From the NCBI GenBank assembly GCA_026770705.1, contig JANJGN010000052.1, positions 3,534,001 through 3,598,000 of the forward strand: a stretch of 64,000 bases of DNA, read 5' to 3'. Under the pieces are notes generated by a model. That model was not told the origin of the DNA and made no database searches. It saw only the letters and a program-made list of their open reading frames with translations. This DNA is from Isurus oxyrinchus. Its lineage: Eukaryota. Shown one piece after another: positions 3,816 through 64,000 of this stretch (positions are counted from its first letter, which is position 1; each line of letters starts with the position of its first letter). The translations under genes were made by a program, and so were the position numbers.

Positions 3816-3839
3816 GCAGTGTTATCACTTGGCAGGTGA

Positions 3840-29362: not shown

Positions 29363-32300
29363 ACAGAAACTGATTTTAAATCTCATGTCTAAGTATTATT
29401 TTTCCTTTGCTTACATTTTAATCCCTGCACCTGATGGCTTTATCGCTTCACATTTAATAACTTTCAGCAGGAGCCACGTTCAAATTGAATGGACAAGCTG
29501 GCTTGGGAGGCCAAAAGGCCTACTCCTGCTTCTGTTTATTTATGTTAGTGTTGTTATGTAGTGGAACTAGAGAGGTTATATCAGTTATGAGAACATTAAG
29601 CAAACAGCAGCAAGAATTGAACACCTACGTTGTGGTTTATGAAAAGGTTTTCAACCTGGTCAACTGGTAAAATCTGTTGAAAGTGGGCTATCATGGCGTG
29701 TGCCCTTTGTGAGATATTTGTAACAACGTTCTCGATGTCGGAACAGCTTGCATTGAACAAAGCTGATCTTTACCCAGAACTTCAGAGGAAGGGGGGACAA
29801 TTGTTCCCTGGTGTGGGGGGCATGGTGGGGGGGGAGGGTGAGGGAGAGACAAGTAGCCTGAAGTACCAAGCCAGACACTTTGTGAAGACAAAAGTTGTTT
29901 ATTCATTTTTTTTTACAAATCATAATCTTTACAATTAAAGACCCGACAAGATAATGGTGAATCATGAACACATTGTCGGGGTGAATCTGTGCCCGGGAGC
30001 ATAAAGCAGCAAAATCAGGAGCCCGCTTTACATCTCTCTGAATTTTAACTATCATTAACCCCAGTAACATCCATTCAAATGACTTAGTCATAAGATTCCT
30101 CACACATTCACTTGCACACTCACACACCCACACCCACACAGACACACTGACACACTCACTCATTCACATTGACACACACTGACACAGTCACACACACCCA
30201 CACAGACACACTGACACACTCACTCATTCACATTGACACACACTGAAACAGTCACACACACCCACACAGACACACTGACACACTCACTCATTCACATTGA
30301 CACACACTGACACAGTCACACACACACATACACACACACACGCTGACACAATCACACACATTCACATTGACACACACATATTGACAGTCACACATACACA
30401 CACACACTCACTCATAAAGACAGACACAAACACAGCCACGCACACACTAACACATACTCACACACACTCACTCACGCACACACACATTGATACACTCAAA
30501 CACTCACAGACACACTCACATACTCACACATAAACAAAGAAGTTTACATTATAAACACTATAAACACAGGTTAGATTAAAAGTGCAGTATATTGGTACAA
30601 AGATAGGCCATAATGAAAACTTCAATATGAGATCGTCACTAATAAATCCAATGGGGATTTCAGGAGAAATCTCTTCACCCAGACAGTGGGGAGAATGTGG
30701 AACTCGCTCCCACAGAGAGTAGTTGAGGTGAATAGTGTCGATGTATTTAAGGGGAAGCTGGATAAACACACGAGGGAGAAATGAATAGAAGGATATGGTG
30801 ATGGGGTGAGATGGAGAAGGGGTGGGCGGAGTCTCGTGAGGAGCAGAAACTCCAGCATGGAGCAGATGGGCCAAATGGCTTCTTTCCCTGCTGTAAAACG
30901 CAGGTAAAGTTTCAGTTGGAATTAATGAACAGGGCCTGTGTTAAATAGATTGCTAAGCAGTAGATAAGGAGGGGAGAGGCTGTGGCATGGTGCAGGATGA
31001 CCTTGCGTGAATGAGGCCAGGGTCTAATATCTACAGCAGAGACCACAAGTCTCATTTGGTTCTCTCCAATTACAGCAGTTACAGCAGAATCTGCAGCGCT
31101 GCTGTCTGCTCATTCTGTTCTGGTGCTGCAGCAAGGAGCCCTGGAAAAGCAGGAGGACAATAGGTGAGAACATTCCGGAAAGAAAGAAGGCATCATTTCA
31201 ATCAGGCGCGTCATTGGAAGGAGGATGGCGCATTTCTATAGCGCCTTTCCCCTCCTCAGGATGGCCCAAAGTGTTCCACAGCTGAAGGAAGGACTTTTTC
31301 TGAAGTGAGCTCACCGCTGTAATGTAGGAAACGCAGCAGGCAATTCACGCACAGCAAGATCCCACAAACAGAAATGTGATAATGGCCCCGATTTTCAGTT
31401 TTTTACCAATGTCAGTTGAGGGATAAATGTTTGCCCCAGGAAAGCAGACATAACTGCATCTCATCCACCCCCCACCACCCCCTCCACACATACCCCCAAC
31501 TCCTGACGCACTTCATCTAAATTGTGGCCATGGAATCCTCTATATCCACCTGAGAGGGCAGATGTTGTCTCAGTTTAACATCTCATCTGAAAGACAGCGC
31601 CTTCAACAGTGCAGCACCCCCTCAGTACTGACCCTCCGACTGTGCAGCACCCCCTCAGTACTGACCCTCCGACTGTGCAGTCCCCCGCCGGTACTGACCC
31701 TCTGACAGTGCAGCACTTCAAGACTGACCGTCTGACAATGCAGCACCCCCTCAGTACTGACCCTCCGACTGTCCTGCCCCCCCGCCGGTACTGACCCTCC
31801 GACAGCTCGGTAATTTCTCAATTACGCCTGGTGGTCCTTTTAACTCAGAGCTGTGAGTTGCAGAGAATCGAGCAGACACCCTGAACTGACACTTGCAGTG
31901 CAAGTACTGGGAGCGCGCTGGTCATTATCATGCTGCTGTCTGTGGGATCTTACTGTGCGCCAATGGCTGATTCTTTTCCCACAGTACATCAGTGACCTCA
32001 CATGAAAGAAAAAAAGCACTTGATTGTCTGCGAAACAGTTTGGGACGTCCTGATGTGTTGGAAGGCGCTAGAGAAATGCAAGTCCTCTTTGTCTTTCACT
32101 CGATCCTCTAAGGTGTCTGTTGATTAACCAGCCTCTCGGTGTATGATGTAGGCCTGGTTATAAACAGTTAGAAGGATCAAATATCAAAAGTGCTTTGGCT
32201 GACAGTCAAACCGATTGTGCATTCGGAGAGATTAGATATGGTCTGCACACAATGACTCCAGTCTCTGGCACTGACTGCCGCCTGGGGTCTCCCTTCCACA

Positions 32301-32861
32301 TAACACTCACAACTTGCATTTACACAGCGCCTCTGACATTGCAAAATGTCCCAGCCCACATTACCGGAGCGTAAATCAGAGAGAAGTCTAACACTGAGTC
32401 ACATATGGAGATATTAGGGATAGGTGACCAAAAGCTTGGTCAAAGATGTCAGTTTTTAAGGAGCGTCTTAAAGGAGAGAGAGAGAGAGAGGCAGAGAGGT
32501 TAAGGGAGGGTATTCCGGAGCTCAGGGCCCCAGGCAGCTGAAGGCACGGCCGCCAATGGTGGAGCGATGGGAATCAGGGGGACCCGGGAGATGCAGTAAT
32601 GTCAGAGATTTTGGAGGAACATCGGGACCGGAGGAGGTGTTCTCCTGCTCCATATCTCTCTCTCTCTTCCTCTCATCCACTCCTCCTCTCCCTGTCTCTC
32701 TCTCTCCTACTCTTCCTCTCAATTGCCCTCTCTCCCAATCTTTCTCTCCTCTCTCCCTTTTCCTGTCTCTCTCCCTCTCTCTCTCCCTGTCTCATTCTCC
32801 CACTCTGTATCTCTCCCTCTCTCTCACACTATTTTTGTACCTTTCGCTCACTCTGTAACTC
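29363..32861 (+). repeat. Left arm of a large inverted duplication (partner 60593-64000, running off the window)
   Basis: Reverse-complement match along its length. Paired ORFs 29693/63425, 29903/63200, 32177/61094, 32556/60523. Confidence 0.95.
31024..31140 (-). CDS. HAMP: Hepcidin exon 3 (copy L)
   Basis: cttttccAG acceptor. GSLLQHQNRMSRQQRCRFCCNCCNWREPNETCGLCCRY* has the 8-Cys hepcidin pattern C-xx-CC-x-CC-..-C-xx-CC. Confidence 0.92.
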   Translation of the reverse strand, partial: GSLLQHQNRMSRQQRCRFCCNCCNWREPNETCGLCCRY

Positions 32862-33342
32862 TCCCTTTCCTGTTAATTTCTCTCTCTTGGACAATCTCTC
32901 TTCCCTTTTCACTTTCCCTCACTCTGCATCTCTTCTTTAATTTCTCCCTCTGTCACTCTCTCCCACCTATGTTCTTTCCCTTTCACCCCTCCCCGTCCCA
33001 CTCTCTGTCTCTCTCTTCCAATCCCTCCCTCCCCTATTCCATCCCTCTCTCCGACTCTCGACTCCCAGCCTCTCTTTAACCCACTCCCAGGCTGGATCAG
33101 TCTCCCTCTCACTATTCCCGGCGTGGGTTACATTTAAAATTCCTGTGGGGATATGTTCACTTCCTTGGAATTGCCTCTTCCCAGCTTTGCAAAAAAAGTT
33201 GGGGGGGGGGGCTCGATTTCAAACCTGCCTCCTGAGTATAACCGAGACAGACTGCCACTGAAATCAGCTTGAAATCAGAAAACTTTCTGTGGAAGAAACG
33301 AGCAGGGAGAAACCTTAAAATAAGGAATGAATTTCCACCTAC

Positions 33343-33399
33343 CGTGTCCGGGGAATCCACAGATTTCTCAATCGTCGAAGAACCTAAAGCAGTGTCAAC
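33343..33399 (-). CDS. HAMP: Hepcidin exon 2 (prodomain)
   Basis: ttctttctttttgcAG acceptor, ACG|GTAGGT donor, 57 nt. Only phase 0 is open: VDTALGSSTIEKSVDSPDT. Size and phase fit the short middle exon of hepcidin genes. Confidence 0.78.
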
Positions 33400-35340: not shown

Positions 35341-35539
35341 CTGAGGAGGGATTGAAAACAAGAATGAGAATTTCAGGGGAAATGACAGAAGGAAATGATG
35401 TTAAATTCATAGAGGGCGACAATATTAAAGGCACGAACATAATAATATCAAACTGCGGAAGAGACCAGTCTATCTGGGTGGTAGACGTAGAGTCATGTGC
35501 AAGAAACACCTCACCCAGAGGGACATCTCTTAGCTTAAC

Positions 35540-35631
35540 CTCGACAAGGAGAAGAAGTGACTCAGCTGCAGGGAGAGCAGCAAAGTCAGAGTGAACAAGA
35601 CAAGTCGCCATTTCATCTGGGAGCTTCCCAT
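35540..35631 (-). CDS. HAMP: Hepcidin exon 1 (signal peptide), out of phase with exon 2 as assembled
   Basis: MGSSQMKWRLVLFTLTLLLSLQLSHFFSLS followed by an AG|GTTAAG donor. It is 92 nt (phase 2), whereas exon 2 needs phase 0. Confidence 0.72.
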
Positions 35632-35689
35632 CTCTGCCTGTCTCTTCTGATCTTCTGGCTCTGCTTTGATGCTTTGGTTTGTAACTAGA

Positions 35690-35915
35690 GGAGCTTCCTG
35701 CTCTTATACCTGAAACACTTGAAGGGGACAGCCGCGGGTGGGTAGCTGTGTGGTATCACACCCATTTCTGGATATTGCAGTGTCGATGTTCCCTGTCCCA
35801 CTGGCCTGGGACCAGCAGTAAGGTCACTGGGACATTGACTGTCTGGCGCCGAGAACTATCAGTCCCTCCGCAACGCCCTTCACCTTGTGCAAATATGTGT
35901 TCATATTGACGCAAC
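35690..35915 (-). promoter_or_regulatory. Hepcidin proximal promoter motifs
   Basis: TATAAGA at 35708-35702; GTCT+GGCGCC at 35841-35850; TTGTGCAA at 35885-35892; TGACGCAA at 35907-35914. Confidence 0.6.
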
Positions 35916-39029: not shown

Positions 39030-39390
39030 AGGGGCTGAATGGCCTCCTCCTGTTCCTGTGTAATGGGCTTCAGTGGCTGAATGGCCTCCTCCTGTTCCTG
39101 TATAACGGACATAAGTGGCAGAATGGCCTCCTCTTGTTCCTGTGTAACGGACATAAGTGGCAGAATGGCCTCCTCCTGTTTCTGTGTAACAGTCTTGAGG
39201 GGGCTGAATGGCCTCCTCCTGTTCCTGTGTAACAGTCTCGAGGGGGCTGAATGGGCCTCTTCCTGTTCCTGTGTAACAGGCTTGAGGGGGCTGAATGGCC
39301 TCCTCCTGTTCCTGTGTAACAGGCTCAAGGGGCTGAATGGCCTCCTCCTGTTCCTGTGTAACAGGCTCGACGGGCTGAATGGCCTCCTTC
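39030..39390 (+). repeat. Minisatellite from the CR1 3' terminus
   Basis: Tandem gggctgaatggcctcctcctgttcctgtgtaaca units. Confidence 0.85.
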
Positions 39391-39619
39391 TGCACTGTAA
39401 ACTTGTTGTGATACTGTAACTGCCTCTTTGGTTTCATTCAGCTGAATCTTCAGCTCTTCAGTCTCTTCCTTGTATCTCTTGCCTTCCTCCTGGAACATTG
39501 GACATGGTTGGGTCTTCCCTGCCAACTGTTTCTTCAGTTTGCTCAGAGCGGCACAGAATTCGCTTTCTTTCTCTTCAGGATTTTCCAGTGGAACCAACTC
39601 TGACCTGAGGGACACTTGC

Positions 39620-40761
39620 AGCCTGTGAGGATGCTTCAATTCTTCAAACTCATTCCGAGATACACTCTCATATTCCCCCAGCAACTCAGCAACTCCTCCA
39701 GTGAAACATTTCAGAGCAGCTGAGCTTGGTTTTCTGGAACCAGTCTCGGCCCAGAAGACTAGGGCCCTCACCTGTCGCTATGATCACTGGAAGCTGGGCT
39801 GTCTGCTGCCTGTAGGACACAGGTACTGGGACCAGGTCCTTTCCCTGTATGGATTCTCCAGTGTGTGTCTTCAGCTGATCCATTGTTTGCTCTAAATTCA
39901 GCGTCTGGGTTCCTTCATTTAGCTGTTTAAATGTGGGCTCTTCCACCACTGTGTCTGAGGCTCCCGTATCTGCCCCATTACTAGTGGCTGCCCATTCACT
40001 TGGGTTGTGATGGTTATAGGTTCAGTTTTTACCACTGTGACATTGGACAGGGAATAGACATCGGTATCAGCAGCTTCAGGCTCTGTGATATTATTCACTT
40101 CCATCATGTTGGTGCACTGCCTGATGGGCTGTCTCCATTTCACCCTGCATTGCTTTATTACCCACCCCTTTCTTGTGGCAGTGATGGCATTCTGCCCCCT
40201 TGAACCTGCAGGTGTCCGGTACGAGCTCAATGCCCCCCACATCGAGAACAGGCCAACTTCGGAGTTGCTGCTGAAATACTCCCACGAAGCCTTTTAGTTT
40301 CTGGAGCGGCAGAGACTGTCTCTCGCTTGGCGGCTGTCTCTCTCTCTCTCTCTCCAGTTTGAGCCTCACGCCCGGTGGTTGGTTCCTGTCCCAGCTGAGG
40401 ACTGGCGCCATGTTGTACATCCTGTAAATCCCGCCAGTCTCTCCCAGCACTTTCCATGCCTGGCGCTATTTCCATGGTGCGCTTCAAATCGATGTCGGCT
40501 TCTGCGAGTAAACGGCTCTGAATGGCGTTGGGGTGAACGACACAAACCAATCGGCCCCGCAACATGTCATTGAGTGTGTCTCCGAGGTCCCAGTGCTCAG
40601 TCACCTGCTTCCACTTCACTGTATAGGTTGCGATGGACTCTCCCTGGGCCCTTACTCTGGAGTTAAACTTAAACCTTTTCATTATTACCCACGGCATCAG
40701 CTGAAAACACATCTTCATGAGGTCGACTAATTGGTGAAAAGATTTAGAATTGGGTGCAATG
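39620..40761 (-). mobile_element. Degraded Ty3/Gypsy gag-protease fragment
   Basis: KRFKFNSRVRAQGESIATY, LNDMLRGRLVC, CSRCGGH / CRFKGAECHHCHKKG knuckle, VNGQPL, GEGPSLLGRDW. Confidence 0.85.
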
Positions 40762-41030
40762 CACGTCACTGTCTTCAGCTCTGAGACTGTCAATCCTCAC
40801 CAAACAATTCTTCCCTTCCAAGTCGCCGATTATTTTAGCACGTCCCACGAATGTGGGATCTTTGGTGTATGTGATGGTATATTTCCATCTATACCAATAT
40901 TTATACCAAGCTCCGTGCAGTGCTGTGTAAGAGTGGGAAGGAAAGTCAAAGCTACACGGAATAACCACACAAGAGCTGCTGATGGCCCTCCGAGGCAGCG
41001 CCTTCATAGACCATCCCTCTGACGTCACTC
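40762..41030 (-). pseudogene. Siglec gene C, MAG/sialoadhesin-like V exon truncated before strand F
   Basis: cctttcAG acceptor. GVTSEGWSM..SSCVVIPCSFDFP..LHGAWY..FVGRAKIIGDLEGKNCLVRIDSLRAEDSD then runs into Gypsy gag sequence; stop at 40744. Confidence 0.85.
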
Positions 41031-41089
41031 CTGAAAGGCAACAAGGGAGGGGACTGAACATCAAAAAGCAGAATATTACTTCAATGGAG

Positions 41090-41530
41090 AGAAGTATGCG
41101 GTACAGAGGGATCTGGGTGTCCTTGTACATGAATCACAGAAAGTCAGCATTCAGGAACACCACGGAATGAGGAAGGCAAGTGGAATGTTGGCCTTTATTG
41201 CAAAGGGATGGAGTATAAAAGGAGGGAAGTCTTGCTACAACTGCACAGGGCGTTGGTGAGATTGTATCAGGAGCAGTGTGTACAGTTCTGGTCTCCTTAC
41301 TTAGGGAGGGATAGACTCTGCATTGGAGGCAGTTCAGAGGAGGTTCACTGGGCTGATTCCTGGGATGAAGGGGGTTTGTCTTATGAGGAAATGTTGAGCA
41401 GGTTGGGCCCTGTATCCATTGGAGTTTAGAAGAATGAGAGGTGATCTTATTGAAACATATAAGATTCTGAGGTGGTGGGGGGTTTGACAGGGTGGATGCT
41501 GAGGGGATGTTACCCCTTGTGGGGGAATCC
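41090..41530 (+). mobile_element. CR1 LINE fragment in gene C intron 1
   Basis: MEYKRREVLLQLHRALVR..CVQFWSPYL RT-tail motif; close reverse-complement match to the array CR1 piece (~8375-8755). Confidence 0.85.
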
Positions 41531-41779
41531 TGTGAAGCAATAAGGATGTTTTACTGCATTAAAGGTGCTATATAAATGCACTGTCATTCCTATTGAAACA
41601 AGCTCTCTGATGCACAAACAGAAAATGCTGGAAAAACTCAGCAGGTCTGACAGCATCTGTGGAGAGAGAAACAGAGTTGGTGTTTCGAGTCCGTATGAGG
41701 CTTTTGCTTTTGCTATATTCTCTGACTCGCTATTCACTCACTCTCTGTGTGATCACTAACCCTGTTCTCTAAAATTAAA

Positions 41780-41985
41780 TGTTCACTTCCTCACTCCAGG
41801 AAAGGATCCAATTCCCTGATTTCCGATCAGTAATGAATTTGTACCTTGCAGCAAGCTGATGAAGATCAATATCAGACCGACCTCTCCCATCTTCAGTTCC
41901 TCATCTAAATGGAAATGATAAAGACAGAGACTTTTTCAGAAATTGTCCCCAGTGTTTCTTCCTCAAACAACAACTTGTGGTTAAA
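41780..41985 (-). promoter_or_regulatory. Leukocyte-type motifs around the gene C leader
   Basis: ETS/PU.1-like GAGGAAGTGAA (41792-41782) and GAGGAACT (41902-41895); RUNX-like TGTGGTT (41976-41982). Motif matches only. Confidence 0.4.
41845..41890 (-). CDS. Siglec gene C leader exon
   Basis: ATG..MGEVGLILIFISLLQ G|GTACAA, 46 nt, phase 1; joins in frame to the V exon at 41030. Confidence 0.8.
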
Positions 41986-42149: not shown

Positions 42150-43550
42150 TAGTCCTCACAATATCTATCTATCGCACTCTTCTGCTCTATCTCTCTCTCT
42201 CACACACAGACATTCTCTCTCTAACACTCACAATCTCTCTCTATCGCACTCTTCTGCTCTATCTCTCTCTCTCTCACACACACATTCTCTCTCTAACACT
42301 CACAATCTCTCTCTATCACACTCTTCTGCTCTCTCTCTCTCTCTCACACACACATTCTCTCTCTAACACTCACAGTCTCTCTCTATCGCACTCTTCTGCT
42401 CTCTCTCTCTCTCTCACACACACATTCTCTCTCTAACACTCACAATCTCTCTCTATCACACTCTTCTGCTCTATCTCTCTCTCTCACACATACACACGTT
42501 CTCTCTCTAACACTCACAATCTCTCTCTATCACACTCTTCTGCTCTATCTCTCTCTCTCTCTCACACACACACATTCTCTCTCCAACACTCACAATCTCT
42601 CTCTATCACACTCTTCTGCTCTGTCTCTCTCTCTCACACACACACATTCTCTCTCTAACACTCACAATCTCTATCACACTCTTCTGCTCTATCTCTCTCT
42701 CTCTCACTCACACTTTCTCTCTCTAACATTCACAATCTCTCTCTATCACACTCTTCTGCTCTATCTCTCTCTCTCTCACACACACATTCTCTCTCTAACA
42801 TTCACAATCTCTCTCTATCACACTCTTCTGCTCTATCTCTCTCTCTCTCACTCACACTTTCTCTCTCTAACATTCACAATCTCTCTCTATCACACTCTTC
42901 TGCTCTATCTCTCTCTCTCACACACACATTCTCTCTCTAACACTCACAATCTCTCTCTATCGCACTCTTCTGCTCTATCTCTCTCTCACACACACACACA
43001 TTCTCTCTCTAACACTCACAATCTCTCTCTATCGCACTCTTCTGCTCTATCTCTCTCTCTCTCAGACACACCATTCTCTCTCTAACATTCACAATCTCTC
43101 TCTATCACACTCTTCTGCTCTAACTCTCTCTCTCACACACACACATTCTCTCTCTAACACTCACAATCTCTCTCTATCACACTCTTCTGCTCTATCTCTC
43201 TCTCTCACACACACACATTCTCTCTCTAACACTCACAATCTCTCTCTATCACACTCCTGTGCTCTATCTCTCTCTCTCACACACACACATTCTCTCTCTA
43301 ACAAATCTCTCTCTATCACACTCTTCTGCTCTGTCTCTGTCTCTAACAAATCTCTCTCTATCACACTCTTCTGCTCTGTCTCTGTCTCTCTCAAACACAC
43401 ACATTCTCTCTCTAACACTCACAATCTCTCTCTATCGCACTCTTCTGCTCTATCTCTCTCTCTCTCTCTCACACACATTCTCTCTCTAACACTCACAATC
43501 TCTCTCTATCGCACTCTTCTGCTCTATCTCTCTCTCTCTCACACACACAT
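42150..43550 (+). repeat. ~70-bp CT/CA-rich tandem repeat
   Basis: Tandem ctcacaatctctctctatcacactcttctgctctatctctctctcacacacattctctctctaaca units. Confidence 0.9.
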
Positions 43551-45285
43551 TCTCTCTGTCTCCCTCCCTCAAATACATTCTCTCTCTCTCTCAGACACAA
43601 ACACTCTCTCACACACTCACACACTTTCCCTAAAACTAACACAATCTCTCTTTCTGTCAAGCACACACTCTCTCTCACACACACACACTCTCTCTCTCAG
43701 ACACACACATTCTCTCTCTCTCAAACATTTAACATTTCTCTTCATCTCGATCTTCTGCTGTCTCTCTCTTTCTCTCCCTCGCACACACACACACTCTCTG
43801 TCACAAACACACGCTCTCTCCCACACACTCTCTCTCACACACTCTCACATGCACACTCTCTCCCTCATATACAAACACTCTCCCTCACACATGCACACAC
43901 TCTCTCTATCTCTTTTTCTCTCTCACACAGTCTCTCTGTCTCTCTCTGTCTCTCAGACACTCTCTCTCTCTCTGATACAGAATGTTTTTAAGACCTGTTC
44001 ATGATTTCAGCTCAAAACCCAGGTAGATTCTCCCCAGTGAGGGAGTGGTGAGGGAGTGCTGCACTGTCGGAGGATCAGTACTGAGGGCGTGCTGCACTGT
44101 CAGAGGGTAAGTACTGAGGGAGTGCTGCACTGTCGGAGGATCAGTACTGAACACAATGTCCATTCAGAACAGCTCGGTCCCCGATCAGAGAAACAGCCTC
44201 AGACAGAACCAACTGACGCTGGAATCCATAAAATTCATCAACGTGTTGGGAATTAGTTTGATGTCGGAGATGGAGTGTTACTGGGAAGGAGGGAACCCGT
44301 CAGGATGAACAGCTCGATGTACGACAAGGAAAGGATGAGCTAAGAGGGGTTGGCCACGGACAGACGGAGCATGTGAAGACTCAACAACCTAATGGCAGGT
44401 GAAGAGCTGGAAAGGTGTCTTTTCAACGCAAGGTTTAGACACAGAACTCGATGTTTGATCGGGTATTTCAAACCAGAGAAACTCTTTACAGGGTGAATGG
44501 ACCTGGTCAATAATCCATCCAGCCAACCTCGCCTGGAGATTAGTCCAATATTAGACACTAAACCGAGTCCCCCGTCTGCCCTCTCGGGTGGGTGTGAAAG
44601 ATTCCACAGCCACTATTTGGAGGAAGAGCAGGGGGGAGATCTCCCCGGTGTCCTGGGACCAGTATTTATCCCTCAACCAACATCACCAAAAACAGATGAT
44701 CACATTGCTGTTTGTGGGAGCATGCTGTGCGCTAATTGGCTGCTGCGTTTCCTACATTACAACAGTAACCACACTTCGAAAAAAGGGTGTACTCAACTGT
44801 AAAGTGTTCTGGGACATCCAGAGACCATGCTGTACAGAAGAGATTTGACAGGAGCAGCAAGTGTTTTACTTACAGGAGAATGAGTCCCCAGGGTTGTAGA
44901 GTCAATCCTGTCAGATGAATGTCTAACTGGAGACACTTCAGGGAGCTGATCTAATTCTGGAAATGTTCAGATTAGCAGGATCGGAGGAGAGATGATCTTC
45001 CTCTCCTGACTGCATCGGACACGAGGTGAACTGGCTCTGGGAGGAGGGTCAGTGTTAACCCAGTTTTTCTGTGTTTGAGGGAGATGTGAAACTGGGGAAG
45101 TCAATTGGTTTTTTGGTGTGGTAACTCCATGTCTTTATTTGGTGCAGCACTCATTTAGTTCATGTCGTTGTTTCAATGCTACAAAACCACAGCGCATTCT
45201 GGACTATTTCTGCCTGACCTGCTGTCAGATACACACAGTCTGACAGAGAGGCGGAAAAGTGGTCCCTAGCAACGTGTGTAACTGT

Positions 45286-51835: not shown

Positions 51836-51859
51836 GTGACATGACATGGCAGATGATGT

Positions 51860-52730: not shown

Positions 52731-53021
52731 CCCCTGATTCACATTGACTCCAGTTTTACTCGGGATCCTAGATGCCACACTCGGTCAAATGCAGACTTGA
52801 TGTCAAAGGCAGTCACTCTCACCTCACCTTGTATTAACAGATGTTAAATTATACATAATTCATAAGCTTCTCACAATCTTTTACAGCATGGAAAAAGGTG
52901 CAGCATTCAGAAAGCTCAGTTAAAACCAATAAAAAAAAGTTGAGCAACATCATATTTGTGTTCATTACTATTTGGCCATGTTGGCTGCACACACCCCACA
53001 GCCCCGCTCCCTGTTTCACAC

Positions 53022-53270
53022 TCAGTTTTTCTGGAACCTGATCTGTGCGTATTCCGTGTCCTCGCTCCTGTGCACAGTCCTGTCACCGCCGGGCAGCTTT
53101 GAAAAGTTGATGTTGGCGTAGAAAAGCTCGTCGGGTTTGTCGGGGTTTCCATGTCCAACATCGCCTCCCACTGGACCTTCAGAGAGACCCCGGGGAGCTG
53201 GGGTCTCCCCCTCACTAGTTGTGTCTCTGGTTGTGTTCTGGGGCTCAGTAATCAGCACGTTCTGTTTGCC
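53022..53270 (-). CDS. Siglec gene B, last exon with ITIM and ITSM-like motif
   Basis: ttctctgtAG acceptor, phase 0, 249 nt. Ends ..DELFYANINFSK..EDTEYAQIRFQKN*, like CD33-related Siglec tails. Confidence 0.92.
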   Translation of the reverse strand, partial: GKQNVLITEPQNTTRDTTSEGETPAPRGLSEGPVGGDVGHGNPDKPDELFYANINFSKLPGGDRTVHRSEDTEYAQIRFQKN

Positions 53271-54318
53271 CTACAGAGAAATAGAAACAGAAGACATCCT
53301 CACATCATTTACTGGCACTGATAGGGTTAAGTTATTCTGCAGCCTCGTTACTGTCAGTCATGTCTCAATGGGTTTAACCCTCTTTTTCACTCTCTTTCTC
53401 TGTCTCCTTTTTTTCAATCTCTTTCTCTGTCTCCCTTTCTCTCTCTCTCTCTTGCTTTCTCTCTCTATTTATCATGTAATCTCTCTCGCTATCGCAGACC
53501 TGAGTCTTGAAGTCCTATGTTACCATCCCAATCATGAGATTTGTGCCCCATTATTCACAAACACAGACACACAAAGAACCTCACGCCAATGAAGGAATTT
53601 TATTGAAGGGCGACACTGCTACAGTGTTGGAAATGTGGCCATGGGACCAGATAAGATGGTAAACATGGTCAGCATTATACAACTATTCTGAAAGAGGCAT
53701 CTCGAACACTGCAATGTTCTCTCAGTGCTCTCTGCTGACAGTGCAGCACTCCCTCGGAACTGCCCCTTCAAGAGGGCAGCACCCCTTGAAAATGGACTCT
53801 TTGACAGTGCAGCACTCACTCAGTACTGTCCTCAGTACTGACCATCCGACAGTGCAGCACTCCCTCAGTACTGGCCCTCCGACAGTGCAGCACTCCCTCA
53901 GTACTGACCATCCGACAGTCCAGCACTCCCTCAGTACTGACCCTATGACAGCGCAGCACTCCCTCAGTACTGACCCTCTGACAGTCTAGCTCTCCCTCAG
54001 TACAGACCCTCTGACAGTGCAACACTCCCTCAGTACTGACCTTCTGACACTCCAGCACTCCCTCAGCACAGGCCCTAGGACAGTGCAGCACTCCCTCACT
54101 ACTGACATCAGGTGCCTTGTCATTATTGCGTTCAGGTTTCTGGTCAAAGAGCGAGTGATGGAGGGAAGAGGGGGAGGGAGCGAGAGACAATGCTACCTAC
54201 TGAGCCATATCTGACTCCACAGGTAGATATCTGTGGGTAACCTGGCTGGGAATCTGGGACATGTGTTGTCTACACACTGAGATTGAAGCTTTGGAGTGAG
54301 TGTAAACAGCTCCTGTAC

Positions 54319-54400
54319 CTGGTGCTTCACAGAGAGTGGACTGGGGGTCAATACAATGTCACTGGTCCCTGAAACTCTCTCCTCCATCGCTGTCTTTCTC
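54319..54400 (-). CDS. Siglec gene B, cytoplasmic exon
   Basis: ttgcAG acceptor, CAG|GTACAG donor, 82 nt, phase 2-0: RKTAMEERVSGTSDIVLTPSPLSVKHQ. Bridges the TM and ITIM exons in frame. Confidence 0.85.
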
Positions 54401-54929
54401 CTGCAATAACACAATATCACACTGTGGTTATCATATAGCAGAGAGTCAGTGCAGCACAGACACAGAGCCCAGTGTAACCTTACACCAACGAATGGACTGT
54501 CTCTAGTTCCAATAAGGGATATCAGCGTGACATCACTATAATGGAAGTGTGTCATGTGATCCAATCTTAGTTTGACTTTTGCTTTGAGCAGAACACACAC
54601 TCACAGCTCTGATACCTTCAATCTTTCTCCATATGTATAACTGTTCTCGTGCCGAGTCTTGATAAACAAATCATTAACATTCTCACCCAATCCCTGTGAG
54701 CGATTGGTGCTTTGTTTCTTGTACAATAAATAAGCCTAAGGTATAATATCATTATAATGACACGCCATATCTTTGACCCCCCCTCCACCCCTGCTCTTCC
54801 CCCCATAGCCCTTCAAATGTTCCCCCTTCAAGTATTTATCCAATTCCCCTTTTGAAAGATCCTATTAAATCTGCTTCCAGCGCCCTTTCAGGCAGCACCT
54901 TCCAGATCACAGCAACTGATTATTATTCA

Positions 54930-55430
54930 TCTGGATAACGGGCAATGAAAAACACTGTCTGGATCGTAAGGGACAAAAGAGACCAGTTACGGAGAGGCAT
55001 CTAGTGCTTAACACAAGGGAAACAATCACCGACTTCAGGAAAGAACATTGAAGCAAATATTTATCCAGGAGTAATCGTGCAGAGTGAGGAATCTCTGGGT
55101 CTCGTGATTGTTTACTGGATACAGGACAATGAAAGGTTCTCTCCGGATCATAGTGGACACAGGGACCAGTTACGGAGAGGGACCTGGTGCTGATCCCAAG
55201 GGAAACAATCACCGACTTAAGGAAAGAACATTGAAGCAAATATTTATCCCGGAGTAATCGTGCAGAGTGAGGAATCTCTGGGTCTCGTGATGGTTTACCT
55301 GGATACAGGACATTGAAAGGTTCTCTCCGGATCAGAGTGGACACAGGGATCACTTACAGAGAGGGACCTGGTGCTGATCCCAAGGGAAACAATCACCGAC
55401 TTAAGGAAAGAACATTGAAGCAAATGTTTA
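54930..55430. repeat. ~185-bp intronic tandem repeat (about 2.7 copies)
   Basis: Repeated aacaatcaccgactt..ggaaagaacattgaagcaaat at ~55020, 55204, 55388. Confidence 0.85.
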
Positions 55431-55461
55431 TATTAAAATCAAGTTAAATCTTCAGACTTAC

Positions 55462-55558
55462 TTTCTCACACAGATGAAGATGAAGATTCCAGCCAGGAAA
55501 ACACTCAACATGATCCCAGCCGTGAACAATCCTACTGTCCATTTACTGGAGTCTCTAC
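55462..55558 (-). CDS. Siglec gene B, transmembrane exon (uncharged)
   Basis: ttttacAG acceptor, AA|GTAAGT donor, 97 nt, phase 1-2: RDSSKWTVGLFTAGIMLSVFLAGIFIFICVRK. Confidence 0.9.
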
Positions 55559-56373
55559 CTGTAAAAACAGCCATTAGTTACTGCACTACAGGTTTACAAT
55601 GATGCTCCGATGTATCTCGAGAAGCGATACACTCACTCAGTGTTTAAATACTCATTCTCGGGCAATGCTGACATTTATTTTCCATCCCTAGTTTCCCCTT
55701 GAGAAGGTGGTGGGGGGTCTTCCTCCTGAACCACTGGTTTGTCCCAAACTGGGAGACCAGTTCAGAGGGCAGGTAAGAGTTAACCATGTTGGTGTCTGAG
55801 ACTGGAGTCACATCCACATCGAGACATGCTTCCCTCCCTTAAAGGGTATGTAGTCTCTACACATGTAACAACCAACCTCACTGAAATAATCGACTATCAG
55901 GTCATTATCACACGGTGGTTTGCGGGATCTTGCTGTGCACAAATCAGTACCTGTGTTTCCTACATTACAACAGTGAGCTCACTTCGATAATGCTTCACTG
56001 GCTGTTGAATGTTTAGTAATTTCTAAGCAATTTATGAATACAAGTGTTGCATTTCAAAGTAATCCATGTAACATTTATATATATTTATCAATTAAAGAAT
56101 GAGAAGTTCAGCAATTAAAAGGGTTGTTCAGGACAGTTAGAGAGAGAAAGGTCGTCAAGTACGGAGATTGGAAACGAAGACCTGACAGCCTTGTCCTCAC
56201 AACCATTGAAGGAGAAACTGAGAGCAAAAACAGAAAGGGAGAGGAAAAATTGGATGTGTGGATAACGTGGACTGAGCGAGGATTGAAGAAAACTGGATTA
56301 AAAACAACACGATCCCAATGGCTCCACGGAGACCACGGAGACAACAAACAAACAAATGTATCTCCACACTCAC

Positions 56374-56655
56374 GTTCCACAGTGATGGTTATGAACCCCT
56401 CCACTGCTCCATGTTCATTCTCTGCCACACACTGATAGTCTCCAGTGTCCCTGGATGTAACGTGAGGAATCACCAACCACAGCTCATTGTTGGAACTTGT
56501 TCTGTTCATTGGGACATTAAGATGTCGCCACGTCAGGTTAGAAGCTGGGAAGCTCTCGACAGAGCAGATTATCACTGCAGAATTCCCCTCAATTATATTG
56601 ATCGATGAAGCGTTAATCATACCAAGTGAAGTAAATGAGAGATCCTGTGGTGCAT
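56374..56655 (-). CDS. Siglec gene B, membrane-proximal C2 exon
   Basis: 282 nt, phase 1-1, open. APQDL..IIEGNSAVIICSVESFPASNLTW..DTGDYQCVAENEHG. Confidence 0.92.
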
Positions 56656-57346
56656 CTAAAAACAAATCAAGTGTTTAATGTGAGCAAACCTATTGCACAG
56701 CAAGACTCCATGCATCATATCTCTGTATCTGATGTCTGAATGCATTTCCAGGTAACTTCCCTCAGGATAACGTCTTATGCCACATTTTTAATGGACACTG
56801 CCTATGTAAACTGTCACACTGCAGTTGCATTCTCCCACCAGTAGAGGTGTTGTCCATCTAGAATGAAAGAAGCTTGCTTTCACATCCTCAGGATTTCGCA
56901 AAGGGCTGGACAGGCAATGAATTGTACTTGATTGATGGAGCACTGAGGGGTAAATCTACAATTCTCTGTTCAGGAGGTTGCTCATCCAATTCAGGGTCTT
57001 GTTGATCTGGAGTTTACCTTCCTTCAACACAGAATCGGAGCTGATACCAAGACTCCAGTGCGGCACTGAGAGAGGAGAGGGAACTCACGTGTGTATATCT
57101 GTGTGTTTGTGTTTCTGCACATGTGAGTGTGTTTGTGTGTGTATGCACACATGTGTCTGTGTGTGTGCATGCGCATGTGTCTGTGTGTCTAGGTCTGTCC
57201 ATGAGTGAGAGTATGTGCATGTGTGTGTCTATGTGTGGGCATGAATGTGTGTGTGTGTTTGAGATGGGTGTGTATTTTCCTGTGTATGTGCTTGTATGTG
57301 TATGACTGTGTGTGGATAATTATGCATGTGTGTGCCTACAGGTTTC

Positions 57347-57379
<33 letters not shown>

Positions 57380-57438
57380 CTGTGTGTGTGTGTGCGTGTG
57401 TGTGTGTGTGAGTGATGTTGGAGTTTGCAGTAACTCAC

Positions 57439-57719
57439 GTTCCACAGTGATGGTTATGAACCCCTCCACTGCTCCATGTTCATTCTCTGCCACACACTGA
57501 TAGTCTCCAGTGTCCCTGGATGTAACGTGAGGAATCATCAACCACAGCTCATTGTTGGAACTTGTTCTGTTCATTGGGACATTAAGATGTCGCCACATCA
57601 GGTTAGAAGCTGGGAAGCTCTCGACAGAGCAGATTATCACTGCAGAATTCCCCTCAATTATATTGATCGATGAAGCGTTAATCATATCAAGAGAATTAAC
57701 TAAGAGATTCTGGGTGCGT
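57439..57719 (-). pseudogene. Siglec gene B, middle C2 exon copy with 1-nt deletion
   Basis: 281 nt. Starts AC GCA CCC AGA ATC TCT TAG versus AT GCT CCA CAG AAT CTC in its sister; splice sites intact. Confidence 0.82.
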
Positions 57720-58473
57720 CTAAAAGAAATAAAGATTTTAATGTGAGCAAGCATAGTGCACAGCAAGACTCCATGCATCATCTCTCTGTATCTGATGTTG
57801 GAATGCTTTTCCAGGTACCTTCCCTCATGAAAAATTACTGTCATATTTATAATGGTCACTTCCTATGTAAACTGTCACACTGCAGTTGCTTCCTCCCACC
57901 AGTAGAGTTGCTAACCCTCTAGAATGAAAGAAACATCCTTTAACACTCTCAAGATGTCCCCAAGGGCTTGATAGGCAATGAATTGTATTTGATCGATGGA
58001 GCACTGAGGGCTAAATCTACATTTCTCTGTTCAGGAGGTTGCTCATCCAATTCAGGGTCTTGCTGATCTGGAGTTTACCTTCCTTCAGCACAGAATGGGA
58101 GCTGATACCATGACTCCAGTGCAGCACTGAGAGAGGAGAGGGAGCTCACACTTGTGTGTGTACTTCTGCACGTGAGTTTGTATTTGTGTGTATGCGCGTG
58201 TCTGTCAGCACATGTGTGGACGCGTGTGTGTGTGTGTGTGTGTGTGTGTCTGTGTGTGTATGTCTGTATGTCTGTGCTTGAGGGAGTGTGTGTGCATGTG
58301 TGTGTCTTTGTGTGCGCATGAATGTTTGTATGTGTGAGTTGAGTTTGTGTGTGTTTCTGTGTATGTGTTTGAACGTATGTTTGTGTGTAAGTGTGCATGT
58401 TTGTGTCTACACATGAGTGTTTTTGCATGTGTGAGTGTGTGTGTGAGAGATGTTGAAGTCTGTGTACACTCAC

Positions 58474-58755
58474 ATTCCACAGTGATGGTGATGAATCCCT
58501 CCACTGCTCCATGTTCATTCTCTACCACACACTGATAGTCTCCAGTGTCCCTGGATGTAACGTGAGGAATCACCAACCACAGCTCATTGTTGGAACTTGT
58601 TCTGTTCATTGGGACATTAAGATGTCGCCACGTCAGGTTAGAAGCTGGGAAGCTCTCGACAGAGCAGATTATCACTGCAGAATTCCCCTCAATTATATTG
58701 ATCGATGAAGCATTAATCATTTCAAGCGAAGTAAATGTGAGATTCTGTGGAGCAT
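58474..58755 (-). CDS. Siglec gene B, most 5' C2 exon in the window
   Basis: 282 nt, phase 1-1, open; ttcttAG acceptor, T|GTGAGT donor. Confidence 0.92.
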
Positions 58756-61384
58756 CTAAGAACAAATCAAGTGTTTAATGTGAGCAAGCAGCGTGCACAG
58801 CAAGACTCCATGCATCATCTCTCTGTATCTGATGTCTGTATGCATTTCCAGATACCTTCCCTCCATATAACTTCCACTGTCAAATTTATAATGGGCACTG
58901 CCTCTGTAAACAGTCAAACTACAGTTACATTCTCCCACCAGTAGAGGTGCTGTTCACCTAGAATGAAAGAAACTTTCACATCCTCAGGATTTTGCCAAGG
59001 GATTTACTGGAATGAATTGTATTTGATCGATGGAGCACTGAGGGGTAAATCTACAATTCTCTGTTCAGGAGGTTGCTCATCCAGTTCAGGGTCTTGTTGA
59101 TCTGGAGTTTACCTTCCTTCAACACAGAATCGGAGCTGACACCGAGACTCCAGTGCAGCCCTGAGAGAGGAGAGGGACCTCGCGCGTGTTTATGTGTATG
59201 TGTTTGTGTTTCTACATATGTGAGTATGTTTGTGTGAGTATGCATGCATGTGTCTGTGTGTGCATGTGTGTATGTGTTTGCGCAAATGTGCGTGTGTCTT
59301 TGTGTATATTTCTGTGCATAAGTGAATGTGTGTACATGTGTATGTGTATGTGTGTGCACGTGTGAGTGTGTGTGTGTGAGTTGAGTGTGTGTATGTTTCT
59401 GTGTAGGTTTTTGCACGTGTATGACTGTGTGTAAATGTGCATGTATGTGCCTACACATGAGTGTGTGTGTGTGTGTGTGTGTGTGTGTACATGTGTGCAT
59501 GTGGATTGTCGCATCTTTATTATTAACGTTATTTAAAAATAGTGATCACACAAGCCTGGCTTCTAAGGAGATGAAACTGCAAACAATTTACAGTATAGTG
59601 AAATGTACAGGAATAATCTATTTATTTTGAGTTGATGATATATAATTATACATGAGGCATGTTGCTAATTTCAAACATCATCTGAAATATGGCAGGTCTG
59701 ACAGAGCAGCATTCGCTCAGTGTCCACCCTCTGACAGTGCAGCACTCCCTCAGCATTGACGCTTTGAGAGTGCAGCACTCCTTCAGTATTGACCCTCTGG
59801 AAGTGCAGCACTCCCTCAGTGTTAACCCTCCAACAGTGCAGCACTCCCTGAGTACTGACCCTCTGACAGTTCAGCACTGCCTCAGTACTGACCCTTTGAT
59901 AGAGCAGGGTTTCCCTCAGTACTGACCTCCTGACAGTGCAGCACTCCCTCAGTACTGACCCTCTGACAGTGCAGCACTCCCTCAATATTGACCCTCCAAC
60001 AGTGCAGCACTCCCTCAGCACTCCCTCACTGGGGAGAGTCCATCTGGGTTTTGAGCTGAAACCTTGAGACGGTTTGAAAACCCCAACCTGCTGTCTTGGA
60101 GAGAGAGAGAGAGAGAGTGAGTGCGTGTGTGAGAAAGAGAGACAATGTGTGTGTGAGAGAGTGACAGTGCGTATGTGTGCGAGAGAGAAGGATAGAGAGA
60201 AAGAGAAAATGTGTGAGAGAGCAAAAGAGAGGTAGAGTGTGTGTGTGCATGAGAGAGAGAGGTAGCTGAATTGTGTGAGAGAGAGAGTGTGTGTGAGAGA
60301 AAGGGAATGTTTGTGTTAGAGAGAGAGCTTATGTGTGAGAGAGAAAGAAAGAGAGAGAATCTGTGTGTGTTAGATAGTGTGTGTGTGAAAGAGAGAGTGT
60401 GTATGTGAGAGAGCGTGTGCGTGAGAGCGTGTGTGTGTGTGTGTTTGAGAGAGAGGGTGTATGTGTTTGAGAGAAGGAGTGTGCGAGAGAGGGTGTGTGT
60501 ATTTGAGAGGGAGTGTGTGTGTTTAAAAGAATGAACAAGGGAAAATGTGTGTATGTGTGTGTGTGTGTCTGCGTGTGCATTCTGAATGAGCTGAGTTACA
60601 GAGTGAGCGAAAGGTACAAAAATAGTGTGAGAGAGAGGGAGAGATACAGAGTGGGAGAAGGAGACAGGGGAGAGAGAGGGAGAGAGACAGGAAAAGGGAG
60701 AGAGGAGAGAAAGATTGGGAGAGAGGGCAATAGAGAGGAAGAGCAGGAGAGAGAGAGACAGGGAGAGGAGGAGTGGATGAGAGGAAGAGAGAGAGAGATA
60801 TGGAGCAGGAGAACACCTCCTCCGGTCCCGATGTTCCTCCAAAATCTCTGACATTACTGCATCTCCCGGGTCCCCCTGATTCCCATCGCTCCACCATTGG
60901 TGGCCGTGCCTTCAGCTGCCTGGGGCCCTGAGCTCCGGAATACCCTCCCTTAACCTCTCTGCCTCTCTCTCTCTCTCTCCTTTAAGACGCTCCTTAAAAA
61001 CTGACATCTTTGACCAAGCTTTTGGTCACCTATCCCTAATATCTCCATATGTGACTCAGTGTTAGACTTCTCTCTGATTTACGCTCCGGTAATGTGGGCT
61101 GGGACATTTTGCAATGTCAGAGGCGCTGTGTAAATGCAAGTTGTGAGTGTTATGTGGAAGGGAGACCCCAGGCGGCAGTCAGTGCCAGAGACTGGAGTCA
61201 TTGTGCGCAGACCGTATCTAATCTCTCCGAATGCACAATCGGTTTGACTGTCAGCCAAAGCACTTTTGATATTTGATCCTTCTAACTGTTTATAACCAGG
61301 CCTACATCATACACCGAGAGGCTGGTTAATCAACAGACACCTTAGAGGATCGAGTGAAAGACAAAGAGGACTTGCATTTCTCTA

Positions 61385-61533
61385 TAAAAACAAAGAAAAC
61401 TGCGGATGCTGGAAATCCAAAACAAAAACAGAATTACCTGAAAAAACTCAGCAGGTCTGGCAGCATTGGCGGAGAAGAAAAGAGTTGACGTTTCGAGTCC
61501 TCAGAAGGGTCATGAGGACTCGAAAAGTCAACT
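61385..61533 (+). mobile_element. Short Penelope-like terminal fragment with 14-bp flanking duplication
   Basis: Flanked by cttgcatttctcta (61371-61384 and 61534-61547), which is single-copy in the left arm. Internal inverted repeat; related fragments at ~24810-24900 and ~41615-41700. Confidence 0.7.
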
Positions 61534-62509
61534 CTTGCATTTCTCTAGCGCCTTCCAACACATCAGGACGTCCCAAACTGTTTCGCAGACAATCAAGTGC
61601 TTTTTTTTCTTTCATGTGAGGTCACTGATGTACTGTGGGAAAAGAATCAGCCATTGGCGCACAGTAAGATCCCACAGACAGCAGCATGATAATGACCAGC
61701 GCGCTCCCAGTACTTGCACTGCAAGAGTCAGTTCAGGGTGTCTGCTCGATTCTCTGCAACTCTCAGCTCTGAGTTAAAAGGACCACCAGGCGTAATTGAG
61801 GAATGACCGAGCTGTCGGAGGGTCAGTACCGGCGGGGGGGCAGGACAGTCGGAGGGTCAGTACTGAGGGGGTGCTGCATTGTCAGACGGTCAGTCTTGGA
61901 GTGCTGCATTGTCAGAGGGCCAGTACCGGCGGGGGACTGCACAGTCGGAGGGTCAGTACTGAGGGGTTGCTGCATTGTCAGACGGTCAGTACTGAGGGAT
62001 TGCTGCACAGTCGGAGGGTCAGTACTGAGGGGGTGCTGCACTGTTGAAGGCGCTGTCTTTCAGATGAGATGTTAAACTGAGACAACATCTGCCCTCTCAG
62101 ATGGATGTAGAGGATTCCATGGCCACAATTTAGATGAAGTGCGTCAGGAGTTGGGGGGTATGTGTGGAGGGGGTGATGGGGGGTGGATGGGTGGAGTTAT
62201 GTCTGCTTTCCTGGGGCAAACATTTATCCCTCAACTGACATTGGTAAAAAACTGAAAATTGGGGCCATTATCACATTTCTGTTTGTGGGATCTTGCTGTG
62301 CGTGAATTGCCTGCTGCGTTTCCTACATTACAGCGGTGAGCTCACTTCAGAAAAAGTCCTTCCTTCAGCTGTGGAACACTTTGGGCCATCCTGAGGAGGG
62401 GAAAGGCGCTATAGAAATGCGCCATCCTCCTTCCAATGACGCGCCTGATTGAAATGATGCCTTCTTTCTTTCCGGAATGTTCTCACCTATTGTGCTCCTG
62501 CTTTTCCAG

Positions 62510-62626
62510 GGCTCCTTGCTGCAGCGCCAGAAGAGAATGGGCAGACAGCAGCTCTGCAGATTCTGCTGTAACTGCTGTAATTGGAGAGAACCAAATGAGA
62601 CTTGTGGTCTCTGCTGTAGATATTAG
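62510..62626 (+). CDS. HAMP: Hepcidin exon 3 (copy R, intact furin site; exons 1-2 not found upstream)
   Basis: cttttccAG acceptor; GSLLQRQKR|MGRQQLCRFCCNCCNWREPNETCGLCCRY*. Confidence 0.92.
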   Translation, partial: GSLLQRQKRMGRQQLCRFCCNCCNWREPNETCGLCCRY

Positions 62627-63073
62627 ACCCTGGCCTCATTCACGCAAGGTCATCCTGCACCATGCCACAGCCTCTCCCCTCCTTATCTACTGCTTAGCAA
62701 TCTATTTCACACAGGCCCTGTTCATTAATTCCAGCTGAAACTTTACCTGCGTTTTACAGCAGGGAAAGAAGCCATTTGGCCCATCTGCTCCATGCTGGTG
62801 TTTCTGCTCCACACGAGTCTCCGCCCACCCCTTCTCCATCTCACCCCATCACCATATCCTTCTATTCATTTCTCCCTCGTGTGTTTATCCAGCTTCCCCT
62901 TAAATACATCGACACTATTCACCTCACGTGACTGTGTTTGTGTCTGTCTTTATGAGCGTGTGTGTGTGACTGTCAATATGTGTGTGTTAATGTGAATGTG
63001 TGTGATTGTGTCAGCGTGTGTGTGTGTATGTGTGACTGTCAGTGCGTGTCAATGTGAATGTGTGTGATTGTGT

Positions 63074-63111
<38 letters not shown>

Positions 63112-64000
63112 CTGTGTCAGTGTGTGTCAATGTGAATGAGTGAGTGTGTCAGTGTGTCTGTGTGGGTGTGTGTGACTGTGTCAGTGTGTGTCAATGTGAA
63201 TGAGTGAGTGTGTCAGTGTGTCTGTGTGGGTGTGGTTGTGTGAGTGTGCAAGTGAATGTGTGAGGAATCTTATGACTAAGTCATTTGAATGGATGTTACT
63301 GGGGTTAATGATAGTTAAAATTCAGAGAGATGTAAAGCGGGCTCCTGATTTTGCTGCTTTATGCTCCCGGGCACAGATTGACCCCGACAATGTGTTCATG
63401 ATTCACCATCATCTTGTCGGGACTTTAATTGTAAAGATTATGATTTGTGAAAAAAAATGAATAAACAACTTTTGTCTTCACAAAGTGTCTGGCTTGGTAT
63501 TTCAGGCTACTTGTCTCTCCCTCACCCTCCCCCCCCACCATGCCCCCCACACCAGGGAACAATTGTCCCCCCTTCCTCTGAAGTTCTGGGTAAAGATCAG
63601 CTTTATTCAATGCAAGCTGTTCCGACATCGAGAACGTTGTTACAAATATCTCACAAAGGGCACACGCCATGATAGCCCACTTTCAACAGATTTTACCAGT
63701 TGACCAGGTTGAAAACCTTTTCATAAACCACAACGTAGGTGTTCAATTCTTGCTGCTGTTTGCTTAATGTTCTCATAACTGCTATAACCTCTCTAGTTCC
63801 ACTACATAACAACACCAACATAAATAAACAGAAGCAGGAGTAGGCCTTTTGGCCTCCCAAGCCAGCTTGTCCATTTAATTTGAACCTGGCTCCTGCTGAA
63901 AGTTATTTAAGTTGAAGCGATAAAGCCATCAGGTGCAGGGATTAAAATGTAAGCAAAGGAAAAATAATACTTAGACATGAGATTTAAAATCAGTTTCTGT

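Follow-up and report, generated by a model that had tools for sequence, protein, structure and literature searches.

The closest described relatives of the locus examined here are paired Siglecs. In primates, the inhibitory SIGLEC11 and the activating SIGLEC16 lie in opposite orientation with ectodomain exons homogenised by gene conversion, as set out in PMC5701461; PMC12770363 places inversions in segmental duplications and relates that the SIGLEC11/16 conversion was once mis-called as an inversion. The transmembrane (TM) segment of Siglec-15 carries a Lys for DAP10/12 (PMC7226832), and in humans HAMP, USF2 and MAG are genomic neighbours (PMC4453067). We analysed one 64-kb sequence from Isurus oxyrinchus (contig JANJGN010000052.1; the whole 64,000 nucleotides (nt) are called the window), which carries an activating-type Siglec gene on the plus strand (gene A), the 3′ half of an inhibitory-type Siglec gene on the minus strand (gene B), a third Siglec/MAG-like gene (gene C) and hepcidin exons, with two copies of exon 3 lying in a pair of inverted arms. 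An earlier note on this DNA had proposed that inversion of the segment between the arms would re-pair two split genes. On balance, we find it probable that what is seen as the arms belongs to a larger, deletion-eroded inverted segmental duplicate of a Siglec–hepcidin block, and the locus most likely reflects birth-and-death turnover in a paired-receptor cluster and not a flippable cassette that rebuilds genes. Explained in this way, it would join the other paired immune-receptor clusters shaped by duplication, conversion and decay, with annotation as a side value.

The likeness to SIGLEC11/SIGLEC16 lies in the contrast between exons and flanks: the D3 sequences of genes A and B are 2.0–4.6% apart while their 3′ flanks are 23–31% apart. 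The human pair is head-to-head, ~9 kb apart and homologous in its N-terminal exons, whereas the pair here is tail-to-tail, has hepcidin and a third pseudogene between its members, is accompanied by a long repeat consisting of hepcidin DNA, and includes a gene B without its 5′ half. Where Siglec-15 has Lys, the TM residue of gene A is Arg. The hepcidin exons follow the vertebrate pattern (HAMP; PF06446) in having three exons, eight cysteines and, in the right copy, RQKR. Compared with inversions flanked by segmental duplications the repeats are similar; here one orientation is known, from one sequence.

Among elasmobranch Siglec-like proteins from NCBI, gene A corresponds to a Vn-D2-TM(Arg) type, gene B to a (D3)n-TM type with an immunoreceptor tyrosine-based inhibitory motif (ITIM), and gene C to the leader and V domain of a P0025-type protein. 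The comparison proteins were from white shark (P0108/P0109/P0110, P0010/P0012/P0024/P0064 and P0025) and basking shark (P0007/P0023), with exon identities of 85–100%. Relative to them, gene A has seven V exons, six of which lie in a young 2.3-kb array, gene B is cut within its D3 array and gene C is cut by a retroelement. The set of relatives comprised 116 matches (107 + 9), none of which was flagged as encoded by the window itself. On these sequences, the Siglec cluster next to hepcidin seems to be expanded in sharks and to include both Arg-TM activating and ITIM members. A literature search, from whose coverage subscription journals were mostly absent, listed nothing published on a Siglec cluster or a hepcidin locus in sharks.

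Inverted arms and block X

Self-BLAST and global alignment placed the left arm at 29363..32861 on the minus strand, where it covers part of hepcidin intron 2, exon 3 and the 3′ flank; with the addition of Pfam, the right arm was placed at 60593..64000 on the plus strand, where it contains an orphan hepcidin exon 3 and is cut, and thus open, at the window edge. The arms consist of three inverted self-BLAST blocks (29363–30440/64000–62927, 30724–32082/62926–61534 and 32069–32861/61384–60593; identity 94.9–99.1%, E = 0) around a spacer of 27,731 bp, which bears out the ~27.7-kb segment between inverted repeats described before. Exon mapping and Pfam likewise agreed with the note that the arms bracket hepcidin exons 1–2 and the 3′ half of gene B, and that the exon 3 of the right arm is without exons 1–2. 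Divergence between the arms was 1.47% (36 substitutions in 2443 columns, simple repeats left out), and the global alignment held larger indels of 283, 163 and 33 bp as well as several small ones. Because the arm match starts exactly at base 64000, position 29363 is a limit imposed on the alignment by the edge rather than a natural arm end, and the arm length is at least 3.4 kb. Kilobase-sized inverted repeats more than 98% identical around a 28-kb spacer are a plausible substrate for non-allelic homologous recombination. The arms were also considered as transposon copies, for which there was no support: three open reading frames in or at the arms matched no transposon family, and the arms contain hepcidin exon and intron DNA. 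An Rfam scan gave 0 matches at gathering score.

The evidence for a larger duplicate comes from a block that adjoins the right arm. Block X (59464..60577, plus strand) is an inverted paralog of sequence upstream of gene C, represented by X′ and X″. X′ (45499..46760, minus strand) is a 1.26-kb contig between two N gaps, of which 46733–45683 is the inverted partner of 59464–60577, with 89.8% identity over 1024 ungapped columns. X″ (42155..44150, minus strand) is made up of satellite, a short unique piece and a GA microsatellite upstream of the gene C leader; its 43986–44150 portion matches 60080–59916 of X at 88.6%, partly in satellite. X ends 16 nt from the right arm in the orientation expected for an inverted duplicate. 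Read on the minus strand, the left side runs X′/X″, gene C leader and V, retroelement, hepcidin exons 1 and 2, intron 2, exon 3 and 3′ flank, and beyond this block lies gene A, of activating type, on the opposite strand. Read on the plus strand, the right side runs X, the rest of intron 2, exon 3 and 3′ flank. The right side thus keeps the two ends of the left block in unchanged order but has nothing of what lies between them, and so looks like a larger inverted duplicate that lost 9–13 kb. A deletion of that size between microsatellite tracts would have removed gene C and hepcidin exons 1–2 from the right copy and orphaned the RQKR exon. Its calculated size is 12.8 kb with X′ as the partner and 9.3–11.1 kb with X″. 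The note had also raised the possibility of a larger palindrome with a further copy of gene A past 64000; our preferred reading comes close to that option, block X making the right side look like part of a larger inverted duplicate, one whose middle would have been deleted.

Gene A

Seven Siglec-type V-set exons were mapped to gene A on the plus strand (V1–V7: 5149–5523, 8928–9296, 11231–11599, 13538–13903, 15839–16204, 18140–18505 and 20442–20807). The two V exons scanned with Pfam scored above cut-off for V-set and Ig_CD22, and for V7 the best PDB matches were Siglec-5, CD33, Siglec-8 and Siglec-7 (E 2e-14 to 3e-12). YFFRIE of V7 aligned to YFFRVE/YFFRME of Siglec-5/CD33, as did three Cys. 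The F-strand Arg, a sialic-acid contact in Siglecs, is found in six of the seven V exons (V2–V7). By sequence, then, gene A has the marks of a Siglec: a Siglec-type V-set, the F-strand Arg and the Siglec cysteine pattern. V1 is without the Arg and has YLFSLEF where V2–V7 have YFFRIEF, and sialic-acid binding may be absent from this predicted domain. Six head-to-tail 2.3-kb units with one open V exon each, 0.19–3.9% apart, occupy 7326–21124 and together with V1 account for the seven V exons ahead of a single D2; seven V domains also occur in the basking-shark model P0023, against two or three in other sharks. Between two of the units, 2130 nt held 4 substitutions and no indel, so that the rate of indel error seems low.

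The D2 exon (21536..21832, plus strand) is C2-set (C2-set_2, 4e-9), and 92 of its 98 residues are identical to white-shark P0108. Behind it lies a frameshifted remnant of D3 consisting of the 3′ half only (22156..22310, plus strand), 2.0–4.6% from the gene B D3 exons, and the natural end of the intron that precedes D3 survives at ~21927–21975. The terminal TM exon (23422..23561, plus strand) encodes a hydrophobic segment with an Arg inside it, followed by a short tail that has no Tyr motif and by a stop codon. The Arg sits in the best 19-residue hydrophobic window and was kept in all 10 relatives examined; a TM Arg is typical of FcR-gamma-coupled receptors. A search with this exon gave 9 matches among 76 candidates, and the basking-shark seven-V model P0023 was not one of the nine. 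In four of the 89 D2-bearing proteins examined, namely white-shark P0108, P0109 and P0110 and catshark P0111, D2 is followed directly by the Arg-TM segment and D3 is skipped, and their TM identities to gene A are 42/45, 42/45, 40/45 and 37/45, respectively. With its own Arg-TM exon and stop codon, and with the same V-D2-TM(Arg) layout in relatives, gene A is not a 5′ half.

The 3′ flank of gene A (23829..24167, plus strand; AATAAA at 23945) is paralogous to that of gene B, with 76.6% identity to 52972–52828 and 68.7% to 50752–50559, which makes A and B two old paralogs with their own 3′ ends. A scan of the window with four leader queries found no leader for gene A, only that of gene C being matched. 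White-shark models P0108, P0109 and P0110 all start without a leader as gene A does, and the leader may be distant or missing in A-type genes. The Arg-TM exon is common to shark receptors of differing ectodomain (V-D2, V-V-D3-D3, CD22-like, CEACAM5-like and sialoadhesin-like), a distribution that suggests reuse of one activating TM exon among predicted shark receptors.

Gene B

The 3′ half of gene B occupies 53022..58755 on the minus strand, with three D3 exons (58755–58474, 57719–57439 and 56655–56374), a TM exon (55558–55462) and two cytoplasmic exons (54400–54319 and 53270–53022), the last of which carries LFYANI and TEYAQI. These ITIM and ITIM-like motifs mark gene B as an inhibitory member. 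The second D3 exon has 281 nt and is frameshifted. Of 133 candidates in a search with the first Ig exon of gene B, 107 proteins matched, every one of them from a shark or ray; the best matches, 96% in basking shark and 92–94% in white shark, place the locus most probably in a lamniform.

No V or D2 exon was found upstream of gene B within the window, and exon mapping and scans upheld the note on this point as on the V exons, D2 and broken D3 of gene A. V and D2 are present in 29 of the 37 proteins with a B-type TM and ITIM exon; the eight without them include the two closest, P0007 and P0012. The intron upstream of the first gene B exon matches both D3–D3 introns at 86–87%. Intron read-through behind D3 in a white-shark model scored 118 on this upstream intron and 112 and 100 on the other two (next 33), and read-through ahead of D3 scored only on the gene A intron at 21927 (61; next 29). 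An upstream intron of the D3–D3 kind means that at least one more D3, as well as D2, V and leader, is missing from gene B. The break itself lies in a (TG)n/(CA)n tract (59464..59503) that joins the D3–D3 intron to block X; at ~59.46–59.50 kb it is 29–47 nt past the site of the missing D3 donor and 1.1 kb inside the inner end of the right arm. Since the break lies inside the arms, a flip at the arms would carry the broken junction along unchanged.

The block could have come to lie inside gene B by an inversion between the (TG)n/(CA)n tract and a point past 64000, a version that we slightly prefer to insertion and that would put the gene B 5′ half on the plus strand at the far end. Were it instead an inserted inverted duplicate, the 5′ half would be on the minus strand beyond it, and gene B might still be spliceable. 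The D3 sequences of genes A and B are 95–98% alike, and the window contains no V domain of gene B. Sequence comparison suggests that A and B are an activating/inhibitory paralog pair with recently homogenised D3 sequences. In white shark, where linkage of A-type and B-type models is by proxy only, their D2 sequences differ.

Two repeats lie close to gene B. A 184-bp unit is present in 2.5 copies (94% matches) at 54981–55431, just past the TM exon, and a 0.9-kb dispersed repeat occurs at 3824–4737 and 51841–52722 (71% identity), the second copy splitting the 3′ flank of gene B relative to that of gene A.

Hepcidin

On the minus strand, hepcidin exon 1 lies at 35540..35631 with signal-peptide ATGs at 35631 and 35616, exon 2 at 33343..33399 (57 nt, phase 0–0) and the left copy of exon 3 at 31024..31140, with HQNR where the convertase motif is expected. 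The right orphan copy of exon 3 lies at 62510–62626 on the plus strand and has RQKR. Upstream of exon 1 are a TATA-like motif at 35708 and, at 35850, GGCGCC, a putative BMP-responsive element. Both copies of exon 3 scored above the Pfam Hepcidin (PF06446) cut-off (right 30.7 bits, left 28.7) and carry the eight-cysteine mature peptide. Between them 4 of 117 nt differ, each difference altering a residue, and this rate is not significantly higher than that of the arms (4/117 vs 32/2326, p = 0.09). DNA like exons 1 and 2 was found once in the window, bar one 23-nt match near 3.2 kb.

Read from either signal-peptide ATG, exon 1 finishes in phase 2 whereas exon 2 requires phase 0, and an early stop in exon 2 results in either orientation; spliced in silico from both ATGs, hepcidin gave stubs of 30–35 residues with either exon 3, and the signal peptide is thus out of frame with the pro- and mature peptide. 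The exon-1 frameshift may be a sequencing error, though the two V-array units compared differ by no indel. RQKR is the usual motif in mandarin-fish hepcidin (PMC6887715), which makes the HQNR of the left copy probably the derived state by sequence. A frameshift in exon 1 and a lost convertase site in cis fit one decaying copy, and the left hepcidin would accordingly be classed as a putative pseudogene. With both copies in the window apparently disabled, one must ask where a working hepcidin lies. For comparison with shark hepcidin, the word index yielded no candidate, HMMER one weak match of 577 residues and PDB only 1s6w (E 0.26).

Inversion in silico

A crossover simulated at 32300/61153 in intron 2 reproduced the flip geometry that had been described, with exons 1–2 set before the RQKR exon 3 and gene B brought onto the plus strand, its first exon 12,865 nt behind the gene A D2 donor. 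The claim that such an inversion re-pairs two split genes was not supported: gene A has its own TM end, the gene B break is 1.1 kb inside the arm and hepcidin stays frameshifted. A splice from A to B would have to skip the terminal TM exon of gene A and the poly(A)-like signals at 23945–24009. The phase match between the two genes (MQ|DAPQ) does exist, but since the Ig and TM exons here all begin in phase 1, compatibility is automatic and was rejected as evidence. The locus has the long, near-identical repeats of a repeat-flanked invertible segment but lacks gene breaks at the repeats whose inversion would restore frames. The gene A TM exon, the exon-1 phase mismatch, the frameshifted gene B exon, gene C, block X and the N gaps had gone unmentioned in the earlier note.

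Competing explanations

Several observations weigh against a single eroded inverted duplicate with decay of the left hepcidin and an old activating/inhibitory pair. The unique part of X/X′ differs at 9 of 193 positions compared with 36 of 2443 in the arms (p = 0.004), and as this divergence is the greater, a single duplication misfits unless the arms were homogenised later or X derives from a third paralog. Being a small contig flanked by gaps, X′ is also the most weakly placed sequence in the window. The inner 586 bp of the arms are closer than the remainder (3/586 vs 33/1857 elsewhere; p = 0.029, post hoc); this part of intron 2, where the proposed crossover would fall, also contains the longest stretch of identity, 304 bp. 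As to hepcidin, the convertase site RX(K/R)R is intact in the orphan right copy and lost in the left copy linked to exons 1–2, and an ATG at 35611 is in frame with exons 2–3, albeit with a less hydrophobic N terminus (2.08 vs 2.73). In a 12-row D2 tree (0 starred forks), A-type and B-type proteins were not resolved and gene A could be assigned to neither. Basking-shark P0023, with seven V, continues into D3 exons before finishing in intron read-through, and P0007, the closest B-like model, is without V and D2; their linkage is by proxy only, and there may be a multi-V inhibitory gene in basking shark.

An assembly artefact, in which the arms were switched at their identical core or haplotypes were partly uncollapsed and in which both X junctions fall in or at microsatellites, is the first alternative; we regard it as unlikely. 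Under it the RQKR copy may have its own exons 1–2, and gene B its own 5′ half, in the animal. Four N gaps interrupt the spacer (45286–45498, 46761–46902, 47989–48317 and 49350–49479), the gene B junction is a (TG)n tract and the arm junction GT/GA-rich DNA, the 304-bp run is identical, and the B-like models of the closest relatives are also split within the D3 array (P0007; P0010 plus P0012), all of which speak for an artefact. However, both junctions of block X lie in gap-free sequence (49480–64000), the assembly resolved six 2.3-kb units at differences down to 0.19%, and an arm divergence of 1.5% with indels of 283, 163 and 33 bp should suffice for phasing by paired or long reads.

A second alternative, which we think rather unlikely, is that non-allelic recombination within hepcidin intron 2 truly inverted the segment between the arms, as a fixed or a polymorphic change; this would have swapped the inner flanks and restored no gene. 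The ~1.7–1.9 kb of inverted DNA internal to exon 3 are 98–99.5% identical and 28 kb apart, the lower divergence of the inner ends agrees with such an exchange, subject to its post hoc p value of 0.029, and an inversion would account for RQKR on an orphan exon. On the other hand, no swap is needed to bring together a frameshifted exon 1 and a degraded exon 3 that already lie in cis, gene conversion alone can reduce local divergence, and the gene B break at 59.49 kb is left unexplained.

Less credible still, and in our view quite improbable, is that the ITIM exons of gene B come to stand downstream of a seven-V activating Siglec, either because a 28-kb inversion segregates or because gene A has a palindromic copy just past 64000. 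If true, one locus would yield an activating or an inhibitory receptor by alternative 3′ splicing with the same predicted sialic-acid-binding tips, and the haplotype would also pick the hepcidin exon 3, provided that the exon-1 frameshift is an allele or an error; signalling in an old vertebrate lineage would then be switched structurally between activation and inhibition. A functional orientation switch producing both a secreted RQKR hepcidin and gene A's seven V domains spliced to the gene B ITIM tail is very improbable: although the splice phases permit it across a flipped intron of 12.9 kb and P0023 is modelled as a seven-V gene continuing into D3 exons, hepcidin exon 1 remains out of frame, the splice must bypass a conserved gene A TM exon and poly(A)-like signals, the upstream intron of gene B is D3–D3 and not D2–D3, one gene B exon is frameshifted, and a mirrored D2 could sit 12.8 kb (12,775 nt) upstream of gene B without any flip if the right arm mirrors the left flank to ~71.5 kb.

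Gene C and other features of the window

Gene C (40759..41890, minus strand) consists of a leader (41890–41845; 100% identity to white-shark P0025) and a truncated V (41030–40759; 87%), the V exon having a 5-residue deletion relative to P0025. The rest of the gene is absent ahead of hepcidin, and a scan of the window found no D2 or TM of gene C type and no D4 or D5 exon. Its V exon is split by a decayed LTR-retroelement-like insert (39325..40760, minus strand), in which a gag-asp protease match (0.0037) was below cut-off. A continuation of X′ into a D3 intron was considered and rejected, as its scores of 31–48 were like those of unrelated CA tracts.

Among the other repeats, 46905–47682 and 48325–49107 are ~80% identical direct copies, each on a small contig between N gaps; the two open reading frames tested there had no Pfam match. 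Decayed retroelement pieces lie at 659–1725, 5744–6440, 26250–27630 and 51155–51894, with an integrase match at 659–931 and reverse-transcriptase matches at 5744–6175, 27247–27630 and 51397–51894. Sequence at 6779–7202 was grouped with minisatellite/satellite arrays, and a 33-bp satellite is present at no fewer than nine sites. Around hepcidin exon 1, a 37-bp minisatellite occurs in both orientations (34148–35337 and 38024–38644, 75–85% alike) and forms a small inverted pair.

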